A stretch of 64,000 nucleotides of DNA, taken from NCBI GenBank assembly GCA_019744845.1, contig JAIETW010000001.1, forward strand, positions 177,999-241,998, written 5' to 3'. Position 1 is the first letter of the stretch, and every line of letters begins with the position of its first letter. A program made the translations under genes and the position numbers. The notes beneath the pieces were generated by a model that made no database searches, had not been told where the DNA came from, and saw nothing but the letters and a program-made list of their open reading frames with translations. Of this stretch, positions 3,798 through 13,746 are shown piece after piece. This DNA comes from Patescibacteria group bacterium (GTDB lineage Bacteria; Patescibacteriota; Minisyncoccia; Phycocordibacterales; Phycocordibacteraceae).

Positions 3798-6491
3798 TTA
3801 TTCTACACGTACCGTAAAGCGAGGGTTAATTACCTTCCCTTCGTGGAAGAATTCGCCGAAGACCGTGTAAAGACCAGGACTTGGAAAGAGCACGTGCGCT
3901 TCTACCACGGGACCGAAGGTTGGTGGAGGCGGTAGGTGCGTGTGTGCGGTCGTAGAAGATACTTGAGTGACTGGTGCACCAAGTGGATGCACTTCTCCAT
4001 GGGTGTGTATGAACTCAGAGAGATCGTTCTTCACCACCGCAAGGTGCATCGCAGCAGCCAAGTATGGCTCCATGTTCAGTACATCCTCTCCGTCTTTAGT
4101 AATGCGGTAGGTGAGTGTGGTGTAGGAGTTTGCGAGCGGCAGCGGGGAGCGGAGAGTGACATCGTATCCATCAAAGCTTCCTTCCGAAGGATAGGTGGCA
4201 ATGTCATTCATCGCTGCATTCCCTTTTACGGTAATCGTGTACGTACGACTCTCCTGCTTCAGTCCATGCGCATAATCAATCGCAAGGATGTAGGTACCGG
4301 CACGTGGAAAGGTGAAGCTCCGTTCAAAGCGAGGAGCATTTGATTCATCATCAGGGTGCACGTGGAAGAATTCTTTCATATCTGCACTCACAATCACCAT
4401 ATGCACGAGCTTCTCGTGTATGACTGAGAGCACGGCAGGCTCTCCATCTGCGTCATTAATCGTGTATTCAAAGGTCACGGGAACTCCTGCAGTGATATTC
4501 GTGAGGTCGTTTGCGAATGCAATCTCTGATCCTGTCTGGGACTTCAGATACCGATACTCTCTCGCATCAGAGATGTGGAAGGAACCACCGAGCGCCATAC
4601 ACCCTTCCTCTGCGACTGAGGACACCGGAATGCCGTTACGTGCAGGAAGCATGACGTGCCAGCCATTCCCGTCTGCCAGACATTCCTTCTTGAATGAGTT
4701 CCCAAAGAGGTACTGGAGTGCCCCGATTATTTGGCTCAGGATTAACAGAGTGACAATGAATGCAATTCCATACCTGAAGACTGAATTACGCTCCTGTAGC
4801 GGCGGATATGGGCCTCTAACGAGCCTTGCAAGGTATATAGCGGCAATGATGCTAAGAATTGCGAGCGCCATCATCACCAGGGTGAAGAGATCTATGTCTC
4901 TTCCCTCGTCTTTAATGAAATCTGCCTTGGTGACGGTAAATGTTGCCCGTGCATCGTAGCCACTTTCCTGGGGCTGGATAACGGAGAGTGTGTGCGTGCC
5001 ATTGGTGATGAGAGCAAGAGGGAATACGTATCCCCCATCATATCTGCGCTCAAGCTCTAGAAGCGTTCCCTCTTCGCTTCCACCGTCTAGAGAGACGGTC
5101 GGCATGACCTTCCCTTCACTTGTAAGGAGTACCTTCTCATCCTCATGTGGTGCAGGCGCGACCGCGATCTCTATTCCCTGGTCGCGTACCGAGTATGCTG
5201 GCTGCATGCCATGCAGTGGTGGTGAGGTGATGATCATGAGTGAGGAGAAGAAGATCACCAGCACTCCTGAAGCGAACTCTGCGGGCAAGGTGTAAGACAG
5301 GAACTTACTGAACCACTGCGGACGGTATCGGTGCGCGATGAGGTGATACGCAAGAAGTGCAATTGCGACTATGAGGGATGCAGCAAGCGGAAGGAATCGC
5401 TCTCCCCAGAGAGTCGTGGAGATATTGGCAAAGTCTTTCAAGTGAAGCCAGATGATGTAAGCGCCGGTAACTCCTGCAAGACCGAAGGAAAGCGCGAGGA
5501 GTGAGAACGCTCGTGGGAATACGTCTCGGAGCTTCTCTCTGAAGGTTCTCCAGAGATACGCGACGGAGAGAATGCCGATGATTCCCTCCCACAAATCTTT
5601 TCCAATGAGATGGAATACGTTTACGAGTACACCAAGATCAGGAAGGAAGCTGCTTGCGGTCGCGTGACTTACCTTTGCGCGGTAGTACGCAAAGACAAGA
5701 AGAAGTGCAAAAAGAATCCATTCAGAGGTCGTGAACTTCTCTGCAAGCTGTATCACCTTCTTCCGGAAGAAGAACACGACTCCAATCAATGCTCCTGCGA
5801 TCATTCTGATTACCGTTGCTGATCCTGAGACTATCGCGAAGTAGAGCGAAAGCGCTTCCGCAAATGGAATCTGATTTAGATCTGCCAGTTCACTCGTTTT
5901 TAGAATGATGTGTCCCCCGCCACCAATGAGAATGAGAAGGACGCCAAGTGCAATGAAGAACGCGTACCCCTTCCGTACCAGTGCATCCTCTCGGTACTTT
6001 CTGAATACAGAGGCAAAGAGCACAATCACTCCCCATAGAATGGAGTTCCCAAGAAGCTCCACGAATATCATGAACGCCTCTGGTACTGCAGAGATCTGCA
6101 CCACCTCAAAGGAAGAAGAGTTAGAGGAAGGAATGGCAATGCCTTCTCCTATCACATACGCATATCCTCCCTTGGTGAAGTGTCCGTCGTCAGAAGACAC
6201 CACACTCCACGAGACAAAGTACGCACCGTCTTCTGCCGATGCTACTGGCACACTGAGTACATAGGGATTCTCTTCTACGACTGCCTCTCCAGTCGTGATC
6301 TCTGTCCCTGCATCGTCTTTTACCTGTATACGACTTGCCCCTGGCTCTACTCGCTCACTGAAGCGAATAGATACTTCGGTGGGCGCTTCGATGAGTACCG
6401 CGGAAGACTCTGGCACATACTCCACGGGAGTGGCGTGTGCAGACACGCCAAGCGGGAGGAGAATGATGAGTGTGATAAGTAGTGTTTTCAT
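3798..6491 (-). CDS. Copper transport/resistance fusion protein CopC-CopD with a C-terminal YtkA-like domain (YcnJ-like architecture)
   Basis: 897 aa. Signal peptide, then a CopC-like beta-sandwich whose mature N-terminus is H (SAHATPVEY) and which carries the VSWSVVSSDDGHFTKGGYAYVIG motif. This is followed by about 8 transmembrane helices (CopD-like). The C-terminal soluble His-rich region carries FFHVHPDDE and EFIHTHGEVHP. Confidence 0.6.
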   Translation of the reverse strand: MKTLLITLIILLPLGVSAHATPVEYVPESSAVLIEAPTEVSIRFSERVEPGASRIQVKDDAGTEITTGEAVVEENPYVLSVPVASAEDGAYFVSWSVVSSDDGHFTKGGYAYVIGEGIAIPSSNSSSFEVVQISAVPEAFMIFVELLGNSILWGVIVLFASVFRKYREDALVRKGYAFFIALGVLLILIGGGGHIILKTSELADLNQIPFAEALSLYFAIVSGSATVIRMIAGALIGVVFFFRKKVIQLAEKFTTSEWILFALLLVFAYYRAKVSHATASSFLPDLGVLVNVFHLIGKDLWEGIIGILSVAYLWRTFREKLRDVFPRAFSLLALSFGLAGVTGAYIIWLHLKDFANISTTLWGERFLPLAASLIVAIALLAYHLIAHRYRPQWFSKFLSYTLPAEFASGVLVIFFSSLMIITSPPLHGMQPAYSVRDQGIEIAVAPAPHEDEKVLLTSEGKVMPTVSLDGGSEEGTLLELERRYDGGYVFPLALITNGTHTLSVIQPQESGYDARATFTVTKADFIKDEGRDIDLFTLVMMALAILSIIAAIYLARLVRGPYPPLQERNSVFRYGIAFIVTLLILSQIIGALQYLFGNSFKKECLADGNGWHVMLPARNGIPVSSVAEEGCMALGGSFHISDAREYRYLKSQTGSEIAFANDLTNITAGVPVTFEYTINDADGEPAVLSVIHEKLVHMVIVSADMKEFFHVHPDDESNAPRFERSFTFPRAGTYILAIDYAHGLKQESRTYTITVKGNAAMNDIATYPSEGSFDGYDVTLRSPLPLANSYTTLTYRITKDGEDVLNMEPYLAAAMHLAVVKNDLSEFIHTHGEVHPLGAPVTQVSSTTAHTHLPPPPTFGPVVEAHVLFPSPGLYTVFGEFFHEGKVINPRFTVRVE

Positions 6492-6544
6492 GGCAAGAGC
6501 TTGAGGAGGGATCCCACCTCTGTGAGATCCCCTACAAACCTTCG

Positions 6545-7201
6545 TTATTTCTTTCGTCCGACTGCGTATCCTGCGATAAGGAGTGCGAGCACGCTAATAG
6601 CGATTGCGGCAGGCCCTGACATGTCGTTGCTCAAGGACTCTACGGATGCAGACTCCTCTGGGAAGCCGAGTGCTTCCTTAGGAGCAGGACAGCCATAGCT
6701 TCCGGTCTTAGAGATACGGGTTACTCCTTCAGATATCTCTTCCTCTTCGTGTTCTTCCTCTGCCGTTGCATGCCCTGCAGGGCTACAGGTGAAGGTGAGA
6801 TCTATCTCTGTGTTGTTAAGCATACCGAAGACTCGGTATGAGAGTGTCGTGGCTACTGTTGGGTAGTACGTGGTTTTGTAGGAACCAGGACTGTTATAGA
6901 CCGGAGAAAGATCAAAGATCTTGGTCTTACTCCCCGCAATAAGCTCTACCTGTAGTGTCTCTTCAAGTCCTGATACAGGAGTGCCTGCGCCATGGTCATG
7001 GTCCGTGTGTGCATCTACCACCTCTGCAATACGGAGATCTACTCCTGTCTTATCGTCTACAGTAATTGGTTCGTTTAGAGACCCAATGGTGAACTGGTAG
7101 TACTTGCCTCCGATCTCAAATACATGGGTCTCGTGTGCACTGACGCTTAGCGGCATGAGTACAAACAATGCAGCGAGCGTAATAGAACTAATGATTTTCA
7201 T
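6545..7201 (-). CDS. YcnI-like (DUF1775-like) secreted copper-binding protein with a C-terminal membrane anchor
   Basis: 218 aa. The signal peptide ends ...SVSAHETHV, so the mature protein starts with His, as in His-brace YcnI proteins. It has an acidic/His region and a C-terminal transmembrane helix plus RKK. It lies next to the CopCD fusion, as in the Bacillus ycnJ-ycnI arrangement. Confidence 0.5.
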   Translation of the reverse strand: MKIISSITLAALFVLMPLSVSAHETHVFEIGGKYYQFTIGSLNEPITVDDKTGVDLRIAEVVDAHTDHDHGAGTPVSGLEETLQVELIAGSKTKIFDLSPVYNSPGSYKTTYYPTVATTLSYRVFGMLNNTEIDLTFTCSPAGHATAEEEHEEEEISEGVTRISKTGSYGCPAPKEALGFPEESASVESLSNDMSGPAAIAISVLALLIAGYAVGRKK

Positions 7202-7236
7202 TGTGTGTCGTTAAGGAGTAAAAGGATGTGTTCCTT

Positions 7237-7536
7237 TTATCCGAAACGACGATAGGCAAGTACACCTCTTCGTAAGGCGATATTGAGTGTGGCTCCTATA
7301 CGTACACCCTCCTGTGCAATGAATCTTCCTAGGGTAAGGAGTGGGAGCGCAAGAACGGCAACCAGGAGGAGTGCGGCTGCATCAAGTACGTCTAGGTGCT
7401 TCTGCTCTACATGGAGCGCAGTATGGAAAAGGTCTATGGTCCCGTCACTATGATTGTGGGGGACGAGTGCGTGTACCAGCGCGCCGAAGGAAAGCACGAG
7501 TACAAGGAGTATGGCGATGACTGTTCTGCCTGACAC
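7237..7536 (-). CDS. Small His-rich membrane protein, hypothetical
   Basis: 99 aa. Two to three predicted transmembrane helices. Contains HALVPHNHSDG and HTALHVEQKH. Adjacent to the copper module. Confidence 0.3.
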   Translation of the reverse strand: MSGRTVIAILLVLVLSFGALVHALVPHNHSDGTIDLFHTALHVEQKHLDVLDAAALLLVAVLALPLLTLGRFIAQEGVRIGATLNIALRRGVLAYRRFG

Positions 7537-7556
7537 TGGGATCTATGGTATCACGC

Positions 7557-8462
7557 TCAAGTTTTCTTCTTGGCGACGCGGTGTTTCCCTACGAACTTCC
7601 CTTTCTCCTTGCGTTCTTTGAAGGTCATGGTCACCTTATGCTTTGCCATCTCAGTCTCTACGATTGCTCGCTCCTTGTCTTTGTTCTTTACTCTCTGCTT
7701 TGCCTCTTTCACATACTGAGGAGAGATATCTATACCGAAGAAGTGGTGTCCGAGGAGTGCGGCCGCAACTGCAGTTGTACCGTGTCCAAGATATGGGTCT
7801 ACCACCAGCTTCCCTTTGGTGCTTCCGAGTATGGAGTAGATGCAGCGAGTTGGCAGAGTGAGTGGGAATGGGGCTGGGTGTGTGTTGTTTCGCTCTGGGG
7901 GCATGCGCCAGACAGAGGTCAGCAGTGCATGACGTGATTCAAGCTCTTCTCCGATCTTCTTGTCTCCCTTTGGCTTATAGAGCCAGTAGATGCGCTCCTC
8001 TACCTGCCAGAAGCGCCATCCTCTGATGTTTGCAGCAATGCCGCGATCCCAGATAATCTCCTGTCTGATGGTCCAGTCCGTCTTGGCGAGCCAGGAAATA
8101 GGATGAAGCATCACTCCCCGCTCCCAGCGGGTCTTGTGGTTATAAAAGAAGGAGCCACCTGCTTTGGTGGTACGGAAGAGTTCATTCAGTACCGCGATCT
8201 GATTCTCCTGGTATTCCTCTTCCGTCTTCGTATCTCGTGCGGTGTCGTACACCACATTCTTTACGAGCCATCCCTTCTTATTCTCCTGCTTGTTGTATGG
8301 CGGAGAGGTCACTCCCACATCAAAGGTATTGTCCGGCACCTTCTTGAGTGTGGTGAGAGTGTCGCCGACTAGGATGGAATCGTTAAGCTTTTGCATGGAG
8401 ATAGTCGTAGAGCGGTTTGCTGATGTAGGGCTTGTTCGCTTCAATATCGCTCTTTTGTGCAA
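7557..8462 (-). CDS. Beta-class amino-DNA methyltransferase (N4-cytosine or N6-adenine); the true start is probably the internal Met near 8396
   Basis: Motif IV SPPY (DVGVTSPPYN) precedes the C-terminal motif I (VVDPYLGHGTTAVAA), which is beta-class order. The SPPY variant favours m4C. The annotated N-terminus would overlap the upstream gene by 80 nt, so Met23 (MQKLNDSILVGD) is the more likely start. Confidence 0.7.
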   Translation of the reverse strand: MHKRAILKRTSPTSANRSTTISMQKLNDSILVGDTLTTLKKVPDNTFDVGVTSPPYNKQENKKGWLVKNVVYDTARDTKTEEEYQENQIAVLNELFRTTKAGGSFFYNHKTRWERGVMLHPISWLAKTDWTIRQEIIWDRGIAANIRGWRFWQVEERIYWLYKPKGDKKIGEELESRHALLTSVWRMPPERNNTHPAPFPLTLPTRCIYSILGSTKGKLVVDPYLGHGTTAVAAALLGHHFFGIDISPQYVKEAKQRVKNKDKERAIVETEMAKHKVTMTFKERKEKGKFVGKHRVAKKKT

Positions 8463-9066
8463 TAAATTCCACTTTTAGGGCTGCATCATCCTTGTAGTCC
8501 TTGAAACATACGCGGGCACCGCGTAGATACTGGCTTGGTGCAGCACCATTGGGGAATCGCTTGGTGAGCTGAGTTTCTAGAGACGTAATGATTCCTGGAC
8601 TATTGAATGGGATGGAGAGAATGAAGATGAGCTTTCCATCTACAAAGCCACTCATGAGCATGGTGGGATTCTCTCGCTTATCCTTCTCAAAGCGTGCGAG
8701 TGTGTAGTCGTTCACACTTCCTCCGGCGTCTAAAAGTGCGGGTTTGGTCTTTCGTGTTCCCTCCTTGTATGCCTTCACGTCAGCAGAGCGAATGTTTCGG
8801 GGCTTTGCTTCGCATTCCTTGGTTATTCCGTTCTCCGTCTTCACTCCGTCAAAACCGATCTTCCCATCGCTATGTGTGTATCCTGCGACTGATACGGTTA
8901 CGAACTCACGGATGGTGGAAGAGTTCCTATCGTTTGCGTATGCAGAGAGGAGGTCTTGTATGAGAAGCGCTGCCTCGGTGTTTGATAAGGAAGCCAGGTG
9001 TTTAGTGAGATCAGCAGTGTTCCCTGTGGAGAAGAGGGTGATGAGGGATGCGAGGGAGGGGTTCAT
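8383..9066 (-). CDS. Hypothetical protein; by position a candidate cognate restriction endonuclease of the adjacent amino-methyltransferase
   Basis: 227 aa. No recognisable catalytic motif by eye. Tightly linked upstream of the methyltransferase in the same orientation. Confidence 0.3.
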   Translation of the reverse strand: MNPSLASLITLFSTGNTADLTKHLASLSNTEAALLIQDLLSAYANDRNSSTIREFVTVSVAGYTHSDGKIGFDGVKTENGITKECEAKPRNIRSADVKAYKEGTRKTKPALLDAGGSVNDYTLARFEKDKRENPTMLMSGFVDGKLIFILSIPFNSPGIITSLETQLTKRFPNGAAPSQYLRGARVCFKDYKDDAALKVEFIAQKSDIEANKPYISKPLYDYLHAKA

Positions 9067-9148
9067 GATCTGAACAGTTTACTTTGTCATAATCTGTACT
9101 CCAAGCCAAAGATTAATTATCTGCTTTGAGGAAGTTACGACGCGCTGC

Positions 9149-10192
9149 TTATTTTTCGGAGTTTAATATTACTTGACCAAGCTGTTTAGCAAACAAGGGT
9201 GGAACGGCATTACCAATCATTCTGGCCACATTTTCAGTGGTGTTTGAATAAAATACATATTTTTTTGGAAAAGTTTGAAGTGTTGCCCCCTCTCTTAGTG
9301 AAATTGCTCTATTCTCAACTGGGTGAGCAAACCTCCCATTAGAGATGCTGAAAAATCTTGTTGTTATGGTTGGAGCAGGTTTATTCCAGGACATTCTTCC
9401 ATAATTATCCTTGAAGCCCTCTCCTCTATAAGTTTTCCTTTTAAGATTTTTATTCTTTGCCCAATCTAGCCATGATCCACCATTTTTTGGTGTTTGTTTT
9501 AATCTATTTAAATTTTTTTCACTCAGTCCTGCAACACTATGATTGAAAAAAGTTTTATCCTTGTGTCCAGGTTTTACTCTAGCAAAACCATTTTCAACAC
9601 CAATGACATCTTTAACTAGCCGTTTTTTAGCGACCTTCTTTTTGAGAGAAATTTTATTTTTTGAAACCCTTGTGGCTATGAGGGAAAATCGCTTTCTCGA
9701 TTGAGGCACGCCATAATCACTCATATTTACTATCTCGCAGTGAACTGCGTATCCTTTTTCTTCAAGACTTAAGACAAATTTATCCAGACCGCTTTTCTTC
9801 CTATTACTCAAGATACCAGGAACATTTTCAACTAAAACATAACCAGGTTTAAAATAATCAACGAATCTCTTAAATTCAATTAGAAGATTTTTTGATTTCT
9901 CAGATTTCTTTTTGTCAGTTCTTATAACTGACCAAAACTGACAAGGACTGCATCCAATCAATATAAGATTCTTATCATTCTTCTTTATTCCGATCTTCTT
10001 TTGTAAATCTTTTTCTTTTAACTTAAAAACGTCAGCGAGTATAAACCTTGATCCTGGATTATTTTTCTCGTATGTATCTTGACACGTTGGATCACTATCT
10101 ATACCAGCAATAACATTAATACCAGCCTGTCTAAGTCCGCATGTCATTCCACCGCCAGAACAAAAGAAGTCAACGGCTTGAATCTTAGCCAT
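9149..10192 (-). CDS. dcm: DNA (cytosine-5)-methyltransferase
   Basis: Motif I FCSGGGMTCG, catalytic motif IV GCSPCQ(F)WS, motif VI LVENVPG. AT-rich relative to flanking DNA. Confidence 0.8.
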   Translation of the reverse strand: MAKIQAVDFFCSGGGMTCGLRQAGINVIAGIDSDPTCQDTYEKNNPGSRFILADVFKLKEKDLQKKIGIKKNDKNLILIGCSPCQFWSVIRTDKKKSEKSKNLLIEFKRFVDYFKPGYVLVENVPGILSNRKKSGLDKFVLSLEEKGYAVHCEIVNMSDYGVPQSRKRFSLIATRVSKNKISLKKKVAKKRLVKDVIGVENGFARVKPGHKDKTFFNHSVAGLSEKNLNRLKQTPKNGGSWLDWAKNKNLKRKTYRGEGFKDNYGRMSWNKPAPTITTRFFSISNGRFAHPVENRAISLREGATLQTFPKKYVFYSNTTENVARMIGNAVPPLFAKQLGQVILNSEK

Positions 10193-10230
10193 AAGTTAGA
10201 TAACAAATTCTAACATAAGTAAACTGCAAC

Positions 10231-12252
10231 TTATGACTCATTCTCTTCTATACTAAACGATAGTACATAATTATTTCTGTCACTCTCTGGAAAACGGAGT
10301 TGCGGCCACCAAACTTCTTCGCCGTGCTTATTAGTTTGTCTATATAAGAATAAAGTAGGTTTATCAGAAGGTGCTAAATTTATTTCACCTCCAGATAAAA
10401 TACCGCTGTTCTCTCCACGACCTGGAGCAATCTCTCTTCCTCTGCGTACAACCAGGTACGCTTGATCTCCCATTAAACCCTCAATCATTTCCAAGGCTGT
10501 TCTTATGTTCTTAATATTCCACAGCAAAGAATCAGTCGCAGGTTCTATATGACATAGTTCCAGAATTGAAATCAAATCTTTGATTGTTGTAGCTACTGCT
10601 GCTTCATCATTGCCAATATGCTGTAATCGCTCATCAATAGTTTTCGTCACTTCTCTCATTTCTGGAGTTCTAAGTGGATACGATGGATTTATGCTTTTAC
10701 CCGCGACGTAAGCAACGAGAGACTCGGGATCTAATACGTTTCTTCTTGTGGCCTGTAAGGGGGAAGCTATGTAAAGAATCTCAAACTTCCCTTCAGGATA
10801 TTTTTCAACCACATCTCTAAGAGCACTTTCCATATTGTGAATAAGTGAAAAATGTCCAGCTAATTTTCTAGGCAAAAATAGACGCGTAACGCCAAGATCA
10901 TCTTGGCGATAGCCATACATACGAGCGTGCTGGAGAACTGTATCTGCGTTAGGTTTTTTTGGATTTCTCCCGTAGTAACTGACAAGTAAGTTTTTTATTG
11001 TGACGCCTCTACCTAGTTTATTTCCTCCTACAAAAATGTTATATGCTGCATCTAATTCCACTTCGTCACCTGAGACGGAGTTTATTAACTTCACTCTTGC
11101 ACCATGGAGATAGAACTTCATTCTCTCTAGAACCTCAGAAAATGGTGGCAGTCCAAACTGAGTTGTCTCTAAATCCTTATATGCTGCTTCAAGTTCTGAA
11201 ATAAAATTTACATACTGCTTTGACGTAGGGCTCTCAAGTATACGAAATACATCCTCCTTGAAAGATTCAATCAAAGAACATATGTGACTATGGTCAACTT
11301 TGCTGCTACTTACATGACATAGAAATGCATAGCCTTTCACAGGATTCTCAATTCTTTTACAAGTTGCACCGACTAAAAAGGTTACTAGTGCACTTCTTAA
11401 ACCTTTTGGTATTGATCCTGTGGGTGAAGGTTGATGCGATGAAGTAAGCTGTTCTACTTCTTCAATGTCTACAAAACGAAGAAGTTTATCGTCTTTATCG
11501 CCAAAAAATTTATCTCCACCAACATAACCGTTTCCTGGTTCACTAAGAATTGTAAAAGACGGACGATATCTATTATCTGGATTCTGCAAGAAAAGAGCTT
11601 GAGGAGTTGCAGTTACCTGCAGATAAGTTGTAGTTCTGAAAAAATTCCGGAAGTCACTTATAACTTGATTAATTGTACTAGGTAGTTTGCCAGTCTTTTT
11701 TGCTTTGGAAGTATTTGTATTAAGACTTGCCTGGTCTGCCTCGTCGTCAATAATCAAGGCCGAAAGACCTCTTGCGCCAGCTTTTTTGAACTCTTCCAAT
11801 AAACCACTCAATACTGTTCCATTTTTTGAGCAAACAAGAACTACCGGCGGATTACGTAAATCTCGTGCAAACCTCTTTGGATCAGCCCAGTCCGTCTTTC
11901 CAAGAACACTCAATCCTTGTAATACAGACTTCATTCGCTTAAGTGTTTGTCCGTAAAGTATTTCGTTGTCTGAAGTAAGAATTACTACACATTGAAATCC
12001 ATTATCTGCTGCCATTGCAGTAGTAACCTGTATGACACTTGTTTTTCCACTCTGAATAAGTCCATATACTAAGCCATCACTTGGATGCTCTGGAGCTTCA
12101 GCAATAGGATCAACACATCTTCGCAAGATCTGTGTTGCCTTCTCCGTGAGGGCAACAAGCGCTGCTCCTTCAATATCATTTGACAGAACATTCAAGACTT
12201 CTTTTGTATGCAGTCCATCTTGGATGATTTCTCTTGTGTTGCAGTTAATCAT
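10231..12252 (-). CDS. P-loop ATPase with a DEAD-type Walker B, Z1-domain-like (SF2-helicase-related); putative defence or restriction component
   Basis: 673 aa. Walker A GLIQSGKTSV, Walker B LIIDDEADQAS, and a later GGNKLGRGVT (helicase motif VI-like arginine finger). AT-rich. In an operon with the C5-methyltransferase and overlapping the upstream small ORF by 4 nt. Confidence 0.5.
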   Translation of the reverse strand: MINCNTREIIQDGLHTKEVLNVLSNDIEGAALVALTEKATQILRRCVDPIAEAPEHPSDGLVYGLIQSGKTSVIQVTTAMAADNGFQCVVILTSDNEILYGQTLKRMKSVLQGLSVLGKTDWADPKRFARDLRNPPVVLVCSKNGTVLSGLLEEFKKAGARGLSALIIDDEADQASLNTNTSKAKKTGKLPSTINQVISDFRNFFRTTTYLQVTATPQALFLQNPDNRYRPSFTILSEPGNGYVGGDKFFGDKDDKLLRFVDIEEVEQLTSSHQPSPTGSIPKGLRSALVTFLVGATCKRIENPVKGYAFLCHVSSSKVDHSHICSLIESFKEDVFRILESPTSKQYVNFISELEAAYKDLETTQFGLPPFSEVLERMKFYLHGARVKLINSVSGDEVELDAAYNIFVGGNKLGRGVTIKNLLVSYYGRNPKKPNADTVLQHARMYGYRQDDLGVTRLFLPRKLAGHFSLIHNMESALRDVVEKYPEGKFEILYIASPLQATRRNVLDPESLVAYVAGKSINPSYPLRTPEMREVTKTIDERLQHIGNDEAAVATTIKDLISILELCHIEPATDSLLWNIKNIRTALEMIEGLMGDQAYLVVRRGREIAPGRGENSGILSGGEINLAPSDKPTLFLYRQTNKHGEEVWWPQLRFPESDRNNYVLSFSIEENES

Positions 12253-12710
12253 ATTTTCAAATCAGAAATTATGGTTGCCCATCTTGAAACTGGAATTTTT
12301 CTTTTTAAATTCATAACTTGCCCGAAGACACCGTAACTTTCACCATGCTTTCTTCGCAAAGTAATACGTCCTGGTTTCAAATCAAGTAATTCACTAGCCT
12401 CTTTCCATGTAATCCAACATACTCCATCTCCTCCACAAATGAGGCCAACTATTACTCCCTCGTACTCTAAATTCATAGCAGAGCAACGCTCCACATCTTC
12501 CTGATCAAAAATAAAAATCCACGGAGTGCGTGGATTGGTTCTGTATTTAAAGAAGGCGAAAACTTTATTGTTTACAACGTAACCCAATAGACCTTTTCTT
12601 GTGAGTGAAAGGTTTTTGTCCTGAAGTAAAGACATTATTGCTGCACCATGATAGTACTGCGATTTATCTATCATAAATAGTTCAATATGCTCGTGCTTTA
12701 ATTTTATCAC
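12249..12710 (-). CDS. Hypothetical 153-aa protein, first gene of the AT-rich island operon
   Basis: Four-nucleotide overlap with the ATPase gene. No motif recognised. Confidence 0.3.
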   Translation of the reverse strand: MIKLKHEHIELFMIDKSQYYHGAAIMSLLQDKNLSLTRKGLLGYVVNNKVFAFFKYRTNPRTPWIFIFDQEDVERCSAMNLEYEGVIVGLICGGDGVCWITWKEASELLDLKPGRITLRRKHGESYGVFGQVMNLKRKIPVSRWATIISDLKI

Positions 12711-12755
12711 TTTTCTGTGATCTGACCCAGCTCACAGAAGATAGGTTTAGTTGGG

Positions 12756-12826
12756 CTGGGAGACTAGGAATCGAACCTAGATTCACGGCTTCAAAGGCCG
12801 CTGTCCTACCGTTAGACGATCTCCCA
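12756..12826 (-). tRNA. tRNA-Gln (anticodon UUG)
   Basis: Cloverleaf folded by hand. Acceptor UGGGAGA/UCUCCCA (U1-A72, as in bacterial tRNA-Gln). Anticodon stem GCGGC/GCCGU with loop CUUUGAA. T-arm CUAGG-UUCGAUU-CCUAG. Discriminator G. CCA is not encoded. Confidence 0.85.
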
Positions 12827-12855
12827 ATATCTACATCCTGCCCTGGAGGGGCCTG

Positions 12856-13746
12856 CTAATCAAGCTCACAGACCGTTCGGAGCTCTGCCAGATCTGCCTC
12901 CGAAAGCACTAACTCCTCCCCCACATTGTACGAATACATGATGGCGTCAGGGTCCTCCACGTGCCCAAACCCAAGCGCATGTCCAAGCTCATGGGCAAGT
13001 ACCCGACGAAGCTCTACCCCTTCCGTAAACTCACGGATGGTAATGCGCGTACCATTCTCATCTACCACATACCGACCTTGGTCAAAGTCAGTATGGGCAC
13101 GTGAATTATAGACATCCACCTGTACGTTGATCGCTTCTGCAAGCGTATTCAACCCATCCACCTGCCCATTCATCTGATCAATGATGGTATTCACCTGTGC
13201 CGCATACCCATTCAATGTTTCCTGCTGCTCATTCAATGCACGCTGGGTGCGTTGCAGCTCTGCATATTCCGCAGGAGGTGCACCACCTCGTTCATTCCAG
13301 TATGCGACATCTGCTTCATAGTCACTCACCCGCTTCTCAAAGGCGGCAGCGTATGACTCATACTGCCGCTTCGCTCCGGAAAGCTGAGAAGCCAGAGAAT
13401 CAAACTCAGCCTTCGCAGCATCGTATGCTGCCTGCTCCTCATCAATGACTTCTCCGAGCTGGGAAGTCCTTTGTTCCACCCCATACTCCAGATTCACCGT
13501 CATCTCTGCATCAGCGGCAAACACCACCACCTCTTTCCCTGCCGCCTCATTCCAGATCGCAGCAGCATCAGACAGTGCATCCTCAAACTCAGCCCGAGAT
13601 ATACCAAAGCGAGTATCAAACTCTCCTATGCGATATTCAACAGGAGAATCACACGAAGGTGCAAAGAGATCTAGCTGCGCGGCCCCGTACCCGAGCGACG
13701 TCACGCCCGCGATGAGAATGAGTGGCCAGGTGAAGCGAGTAAGCAT
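12856..13746 (-). CDS. Secreted zinc metalloprotease (matrixin/metzincin-like) with a central coiled-coil region
   Basis: Signal peptide. HELGHALGFGH zinc motif followed by a Met-turn (AIMY). A long coiled-coil-like segment rich in E/A/Q. Confidence 0.6.
   Translation of the reverse strand: MLTRFTWPLILIAGVTSLGYGAAQLDLFAPSCDSPVEYRIGEFDTRFGISRAEFEDALSDAAAIWNEAAGKEVVVFAADAEMTVNLEYGVEQRTSQLGEVIDEEQAAYDAAKAEFDSLASQLSGAKRQYESYAAAFEKRVSDYEADVAYWNERGGAPPAEYAELQRTQRALNEQQETLNGYAAQVNTIIDQMNGQVDGLNTLAEAINVQVDVYNSRAHTDFDQGRYVVDENGTRITIREFTEGVELRRVLAHELGHALGFGHVEDPDAIMYSYNVGEELVLSEADLAELRTVCELD

Follow-up and report, generated by a model that had tools for sequence, protein, structure and literature searches.

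A probable Type IIP restriction–modification system with a predicted PvuII-fold endonuclease and a likely TCGA target in a Patescibacteria genome

The window analysed here is a 64,000-nucleotide (nt) stretch of a Patescibacteria metagenome-assembled genome (MAG), taken at its whole length, and all coordinates are positions in it. On its minus strand, at 7557–9066, lies a two-gene cassette that we consider very likely to be an intact Type IIP restriction–modification system, in which a nuclease of predicted PvuII fold is paired with a probable N4-methylcytosine (m4C) methyltransferase and the probable target is TCGA. The preliminary description of this DNA, made from the letters alone, had proposed that the upstream gene product, a protein of 227 amino acids (aa), might be the restriction endonuclease of the pair. 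That proposal has gained in strength: the protein very probably serves as the endonuclease partner of the methyltransferase, because its predicted structure has a PvuII-like fold, its ExK motif is invariant in the family, its gene accompanies the methyltransferase gene in 77 of the 78 informative loci and TCGA is strongly avoided in the DNA around it.

In the mechanism that we propose, the methyltransferase would transfer a methyl group from S-adenosylmethionine (AdoMet) to the target in both strands, most probably yielding T-m4C-G-A, by analogy with N4CMT and M.EsaBC3I. The endonuclease, as modelled, would be a Mg2+-dependent enzyme of PvuII architecture, probably a homodimer, that cuts unmethylated TCGA in incoming DNA; the cut is possibly blunt (TC^GA), as in enzymes of the PvuII branch and in EsaBC3I. 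The cassette would have been resident in the Patescibacteria lineage long enough to acquire the GC content of its host, and selection would have cleared the genome of almost every TCGA site that could be spared.

Gene organization and conserved linkage

The cassette consists of two co-oriented open reading frames (ORFs), the 227-aa gene lying upstream. The R gene, encoding the predicted PvuII-fold PD-(D/E)xK restriction endonuclease, occupies 8383–9066 (−), and the M gene, encoding a β-class amino-methyltransferase with an SPPY motif (279 aa), occupies 7557–8396 (−). Judged by conservation, both are real genes and not chance ORFs, since a database clustered at 90% identity yields 65 homologues of the 227-aa protein at E ≤ 1e-3 (best 1.7e-144) and its family has 336 representatives among 50%-identity clusters. 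The N-terminus of the protein matches that of its homologues (MN..L) in the alignment. The mechanically called methyltransferase ORF spans 7557–8462 and is opened by TTG at 8462; the 77 orthologues described below and the REBASE relatives align from residues 21–30 of this longer ORF, and an ATG at 8396 (MQKLNDS...) falls where the alignments begin. The start is therefore most likely ATG 8396 and not TTG 8462, which gives the protein of 279 aa. With this start, the overlap between the R stop codon (TAA, 8383–8385) and the M start is 14 nt (ATGCAAAAGCTTAA, 8383–8396, minus strand) and not 80 nt. The two ORFs had previously been described as overlapping or abutting; the overlap exists, with its extent now corrected. 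Transcription of the minus strand would place R first and M second, and the 14-nt overlap would probably couple the translation of the two genes. A comparable junction is present in 73 related loci, where the median overlap is 4 nt. A search of 7000–13200 for direct or inverted repeats at the flanks, which could mark insertion boundaries, found none. We rejected a controller (C) protein as a further component because no ORF lies in the 82-bp gap that precedes the endonuclease gene.

The linkage of the two genes was assessed in 80 loci fetched from species genomes that encode an endonuclease relative, 78 of which are informative (two reach a contig edge). A methyltransferase orthologue lies directly downstream on the same strand in 77 of the 80, that is, in all but one of the informative loci; it begins only a few bases from where the endonuclease homologue ends and usually overlaps it, and the genes are separate, adjacent and co-inherited, as expected of a Type II system. 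Across these loci the endonuclease is 38–48% and the methyltransferase 56–74% identical; the greater divergence of the endonuclease is the usual asymmetry of restriction–modification pairs. Relatives of the 227-aa protein occur in 190 species genomes with a patchy distribution over about 20 bacterial and archaeal phyla, and no plasmid-borne homologue was found.

Endonuclease fold and putative active site

The 227-aa protein has no match in Pfam, NCBIfam or PADLOC, and neither phmmer nor a 33-sequence profile matched it to any PDB sequence. Among its 65 homologues one carries the UniRef name 'Restriction endonuclease' and none bears the name TaqI. Its structure is predicted with a local confidence (pLDDT) of 92, and a Foldseek search with the model returns PvuII as the clear top match (probability 1.0), with DpnI, NhoI and Eco15I as further matches. 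The model contains the core αβββαβ fold of PvuII-like PD-(D/E)xK nucleases. The preliminary description had stated that the protein has no recognisable fold, which holds for sequence-level searches but not for structure prediction, since the latter gives a PD-(D/E)xK core of PvuII type. The kinship to PvuII is at the level of the fold only: R.PvuII (CAG^CTG), a member of the EcoRV/PvuII branch, shares 13–16% identity with the window protein in structural alignment, is 70 residues shorter and differs from it in target.

An alignment of 33 homologues contains 22 invariant positions, all of which are kept in the window protein; they include Glu54, Lys69, Glu86-x-Lys88, Asp120, Thr122, Arg125 and Asp143. 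Glu86-Ala87-Lys88 (codons 8803–8811, minus strand), of which Glu86 and Lys88 are invariant, would be the (D/E)xK catalytic motif and lies in strand 81–92 of the model. Asp73 (codon 8848–8850, minus strand) directly precedes the preceding strand, 74–78, and is the candidate first metal-binding acid, equivalent to Asp58 of PvuII as the 'PD' aspartate. From this topology, Asp73, Glu86 and Lys88 appear to have the canonical PD...(D/E)xK placement. The invariant Glu54 (codon 8905–8907, minus strand), in the core helix 51–60, is a candidate additional active-site acid of the Hjc or BamHI type in the model. The order of elements further suggests that the GGxxxDYT loop is the counterpart of the His-rich recognition loop of PvuII, and that the hairpin 135–153, followed by helix 157–170, corresponds to the PvuII WIFAIYRGIAIEAIYRL hairpin. 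Because the element order appears to be that of PvuII, Asp120, Thr122 and Arg125 are candidate specificity residues.

The presumed dimeric state of the endonuclease fits with natural single-chain tandem versions in the family. In two relatives, P0117 (438 aa) and P0153 (420 aa), the endonuclease domain is tandem-duplicated within one chain, with GFDG...ExK in both halves. Judged from their sequences, these proteins look like natural 'single-chain dimers', and they could recognise asymmetric sites.

The further fold matches DpnI, NhoI and Eco15I share the PvuII-like scaffold but depend on methylation. They raise the alternative that the 227-aa protein is another kind of nuclease, methylation-dependent like DpnI and NhoI or a repair enzyme like Vsr, that merely travels with the methyltransferase. 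We judge both forms of this alternative extremely improbable on the linkage, the fold match and the avoidance of TCGA. A methyl-dependent nuclease tied this strictly to a methyltransferase (77 of 78 loci) would destroy its own host's DNA if both enzymes had the same specificity, PvuII is the clear top match, and palindrome avoidance suits a classical restriction enzyme.

Methyltransferase chemistry and the probable TCGA target

The methyltransferase is matched by the Pfam family PF01555 (N6_N4_Mtase) at 1.6e-31 and by the PADLOC Type II methyltransferase model MTase_II at 3.5e-37. Its catalytic motif IV reads S-P-P-Y (residues 31–34; 8295–8306, minus strand) in the context TSPPYNK, rather than DPPY or NPPY, and aligns with the SPPY of N4CMT. 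The AdoMet-binding motif I, D-P-Y-L-G-H-G-T-T (VVDPYLGHGTTAVAA; residues 200–208; 7773–7799, minus strand), recognised from the sequence and from the N4CMT alignment, follows it. Motif IV thus precedes motif I, which is the permuted order of the β class; the preliminary description had assigned the enzyme to this class from the same two motifs, and their order and the PF01555 match bear it out. By far the best solved relative is N4CMT (PDB 8s9n, E = 2e-46), the next match being at 1e-13 and CcrM at 1e-11. N4CMT has a biochemically demonstrated m4C product (PMC10406627, PMC8885841), and a published rule ties SPPY to N4-cytosine and DPPY to N6-adenine enzymes (PMC8885841). The product of the window enzyme is likely to be m4C, by analogy, because its best solved relative is this verified enzyme; the earlier reading of SPPY as a probable m4C signature agrees with this. 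N4CMT of Adineta vaga (PDB 8S9M/N/O) belongs to the same methyltransferase subfamily and shares SPPY, but unlike the window enzyme it is eukaryotic, fused to a chromodomain, relaxed in specificity, engaged in silencing and without an endonuclease partner.

The same architecture with a methyltransferase that makes N6-methyladenine (m6A), giving TCG-m6A as M.TaqI does, is unlikely. In its favour, the closest REBASE relatives are listed as 'N4N6', and the best NCBIfam matches are to adenine-specific families (CcrM, 3.2e-17; PRK11524, 8e-16), though these lie far below the cut-offs of those families. Systems with m6A at TCGA are well known, TaqI among them. The TaqI system (T^CGA) has the same predicted recognition sequence as the window system, and M.TaqI is a γ-class N6-adenine enzyme; the window methyltransferase is instead of the β class with SPPY, and not a γ-class NPPY partner of the TaqI type. 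An adenine product also sits poorly with the rule on SPPY and with the gap between the matches to N4CMT and to CcrM (2e-46 versus 1e-11). Moreover, a TCGA-associated m4C methyltransferase already exists: M.EsaBC3I makes m4C and has been employed at New England Biolabs as a positive control for m4C (PMC2582602), and EsaBC3I has been grouped with TaqI as a cutter of the same sites (PMC11433625). The window system may be a counterpart of EsaBC3I, an environmental-DNA enzyme of New England Biolabs, with which it would share the TCGA site and m4C. The EsaBC3I site is TC^GA in REBASE, cut to blunt ends, which would suit an enzyme of the PvuII branch. EsaBC3I may be the characterised prototype behind the 'TCGA' predictions in REBASE. 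A literature text search for m4C at TCGA found nothing; methylation at TCGA, of unspecified type, is mentioned in two metaepigenome papers.

REBASE already lists the methyltransferase family, with TCGA as the predicted target. In a comparison with the REBASE sequences reproduced in Supplementary Data 1 of PMC8885841, the window enzyme is 66%, 62%, 61%, 55% and 55% identical to five putative TCGA enzymes; the values for a cyanophage enzyme, N4CMT (BLASTP) and M.NciI (CCSGG) are 47%, 38% and 35%, respectively. The five (M.PmaEXORF210P, M.Hwi430ORFCP, M.HciORF741P, M.Tru12173ORF8030P and M.TbaTF1ORF1101P) align over essentially their full length and have the SPPYNK motif, the central segment and a basic C-terminal tail in common with the window enzyme; they are uncharacterised predictions labelled N4N6, and the window enzyme comes from a Patescibacteria MAG. 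The central segment IAANIRGWRFWQVEERIYWL, a putative target-recognition element, is identical or nearly so throughout the TCGA group, and N4CMT differs from the group there. The basic tail (KHKVTMTFKERKEKGKFVGKHRVAKKKT, at about 7557–7650) is kept in the TCGA-labelled relatives (e.g. KHVVKKTFKERKEKGEFVGKYRKK); N4CMT and M.NciI lack this tail, which may serve as an additional DNA-binding element.

TCGA is conspicuously rare in the window. Outside a low-GC island (∼59 kb), 21 sites are observed against 173 expected from a maximal-order Markov model (observed/expected ratio 0.12, z = −14.8), the lowest value of all 256 tetranucleotides; the second-lowest z is −6.4. Eleven of these 21 sites are in tRNA genes, which leaves 10 others over the ∼59 kb. 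Over the whole 64-kb window, 11 of 22 sites fall within eight of the nine tRNA genes (at 12771, 24521, 28539, 28546, 36940, 37061, 37191, 61911, 61927, 61942 and 63102), where TCGA would persist because the sequence is constrained and hard to mutate away. The cassette itself contains no TCGA site. In the 63 related loci that are 6 kb or longer, TCGA has the lowest pooled observed/expected ratio (0.33) of the 16 four-base palindromes and falls below expectation in every locus. On these sequence grounds the recognition target is most probably TCGA.

A genuine Type II pair that recognises some other sequence, with the TCGA depletion owed to another system or to the history of the lineage, is rather improbable. 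Methyltransferases that are 55–66% identical can differ in specificity, and the REBASE labels are predicted; in the related loci other palindromes are depleted as well, and GATC or GGCC ranks as the most depleted palindrome of a single locus more often than TCGA does. Against this stand the near identity of the central segment to that of the TCGA-labelled enzymes, the extreme position of TCGA in the window and its consistent depletion across the cassette-carrying loci. The most depleted six-base palindromes in the window are TGCGCA (nine observed versus 25.8 expected, z = −4.7) and AGCGCT (20 versus 32.7), possibly the trace of a further restriction system, either current or former.

The avoidance of TCGA also bears on whether the endonuclease functions. 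It is decidedly improbable that the R gene has decayed or lost its activity and that the methyltransferase persists as an orphan with a regulatory role. Orphan methyltransferases are common, and relatives of this one without an endonuclease occur in cyanophages and rotifers. The endonuclease ORF, however, is full length and retains every family-invariant residue together with the canonical Asp73, its overlap with the methyltransferase gene is intact, and the avoidance of TCGA implies cutting pressure, at least recently; the system is presumably active.

Several observations weigh against a complete, TCGA-specific m4C system of PvuII type. The REBASE labels of the TCGA relatives are predictions ('P', 'N4N6') that leave the modified base undecided, and the depletion of TCGA could have been left behind by some other TCGA-specific system, either a former one or one encoded elsewhere in the genome. 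Aligned with hhalign, the 227-aa family matches PvuII with a probability of 0.4%, so that there is no similarity at the sequence level. At position 73 the window protein carries Asp, 77 of 79 related genome loci encode Asn, and many distant relatives have Asp once more (Glu in one case); Asn at the equivalent of PvuII Asp58 in most members makes the assignment of Asp73 uncertain, and either this Asn can act as a ligand or the layout of the active site is a different one. Matches in a promoter and terminator scan of 7400–9300 were no more numerous than in shuffled sequence, and we therefore make no regulatory claim for the cassette. Finally, one Gammaproteobacteria MAG (OZ242208.1; locus L021, positions 5980–6702 of the locus) carries a solitary 240-aa homologue of the endonuclease. 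Taken with these points, an intact Type IIP system with TCGA as its probable target is still the reading that we consider very likely.

Family variants and significance

The solitary homologue in L021 has Asp at the equivalent of position 73, with no methyltransferase gene adjacent to it and an ORF resembling the metallo-β-lactamase fold downstream. TCGA is still strongly depleted at this locus, with 17 sites observed versus 77 expected. A second variant is found in 48 cyanomyovirus genomes, which encode a 198-aa endonuclease homologue (31% identity) right behind a helicase gene, as in Synechococcus phage ACG-2014d (KJ019124.1, 29711–30307; locus L081); the Asp and the ExK motif are retained. 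These 48 genomes contain no methyltransferase relative at E ≤ 1e-30. Relatives of the methyltransferase sit in other cyanophages, namely P-TIM68, S-RIM12 and S-CAM22.

The family, with ∼340 clusters at 50% identity, might be a structurally uncharacterised PvuII-fold group in whose main clade the change from Asp to Asn implies non-canonical metal binding; we regard this as a speculative and unlikely prospect. A non-canonical arrangement would follow from the presence of Asn in the main clade together with a target that still seems to be avoided.

As one more Type II restriction–modification system, the cassette has little significance by itself, and its value is practical. The endonuclease family is missing from the Pfam, NCBIfam and PADLOC libraries. 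Through the analysis, a family of 'hypothetical proteins' that is encoded in at least 190 species genomes and has been missed by domain libraries and defence-system finders gains a probable function and TCGA as its likely target, and the predicted specificity could be used when MAGs of this kind are binned by methylome. Enzymologists may find minor leads in the alternation of Asp and Asn at the putative metal ligand and in the single-chain fusions; if the Asn-clade, single-chain and phage members prove active with altered chemistry or asymmetric specificity, they would offer a useful new model of PD-(D/E)xK evolution. For the organism, an ultra-small Patescibacteria genome appears to have been strongly shaped by the system, with TCGA nearly purged outside the tRNA genes.
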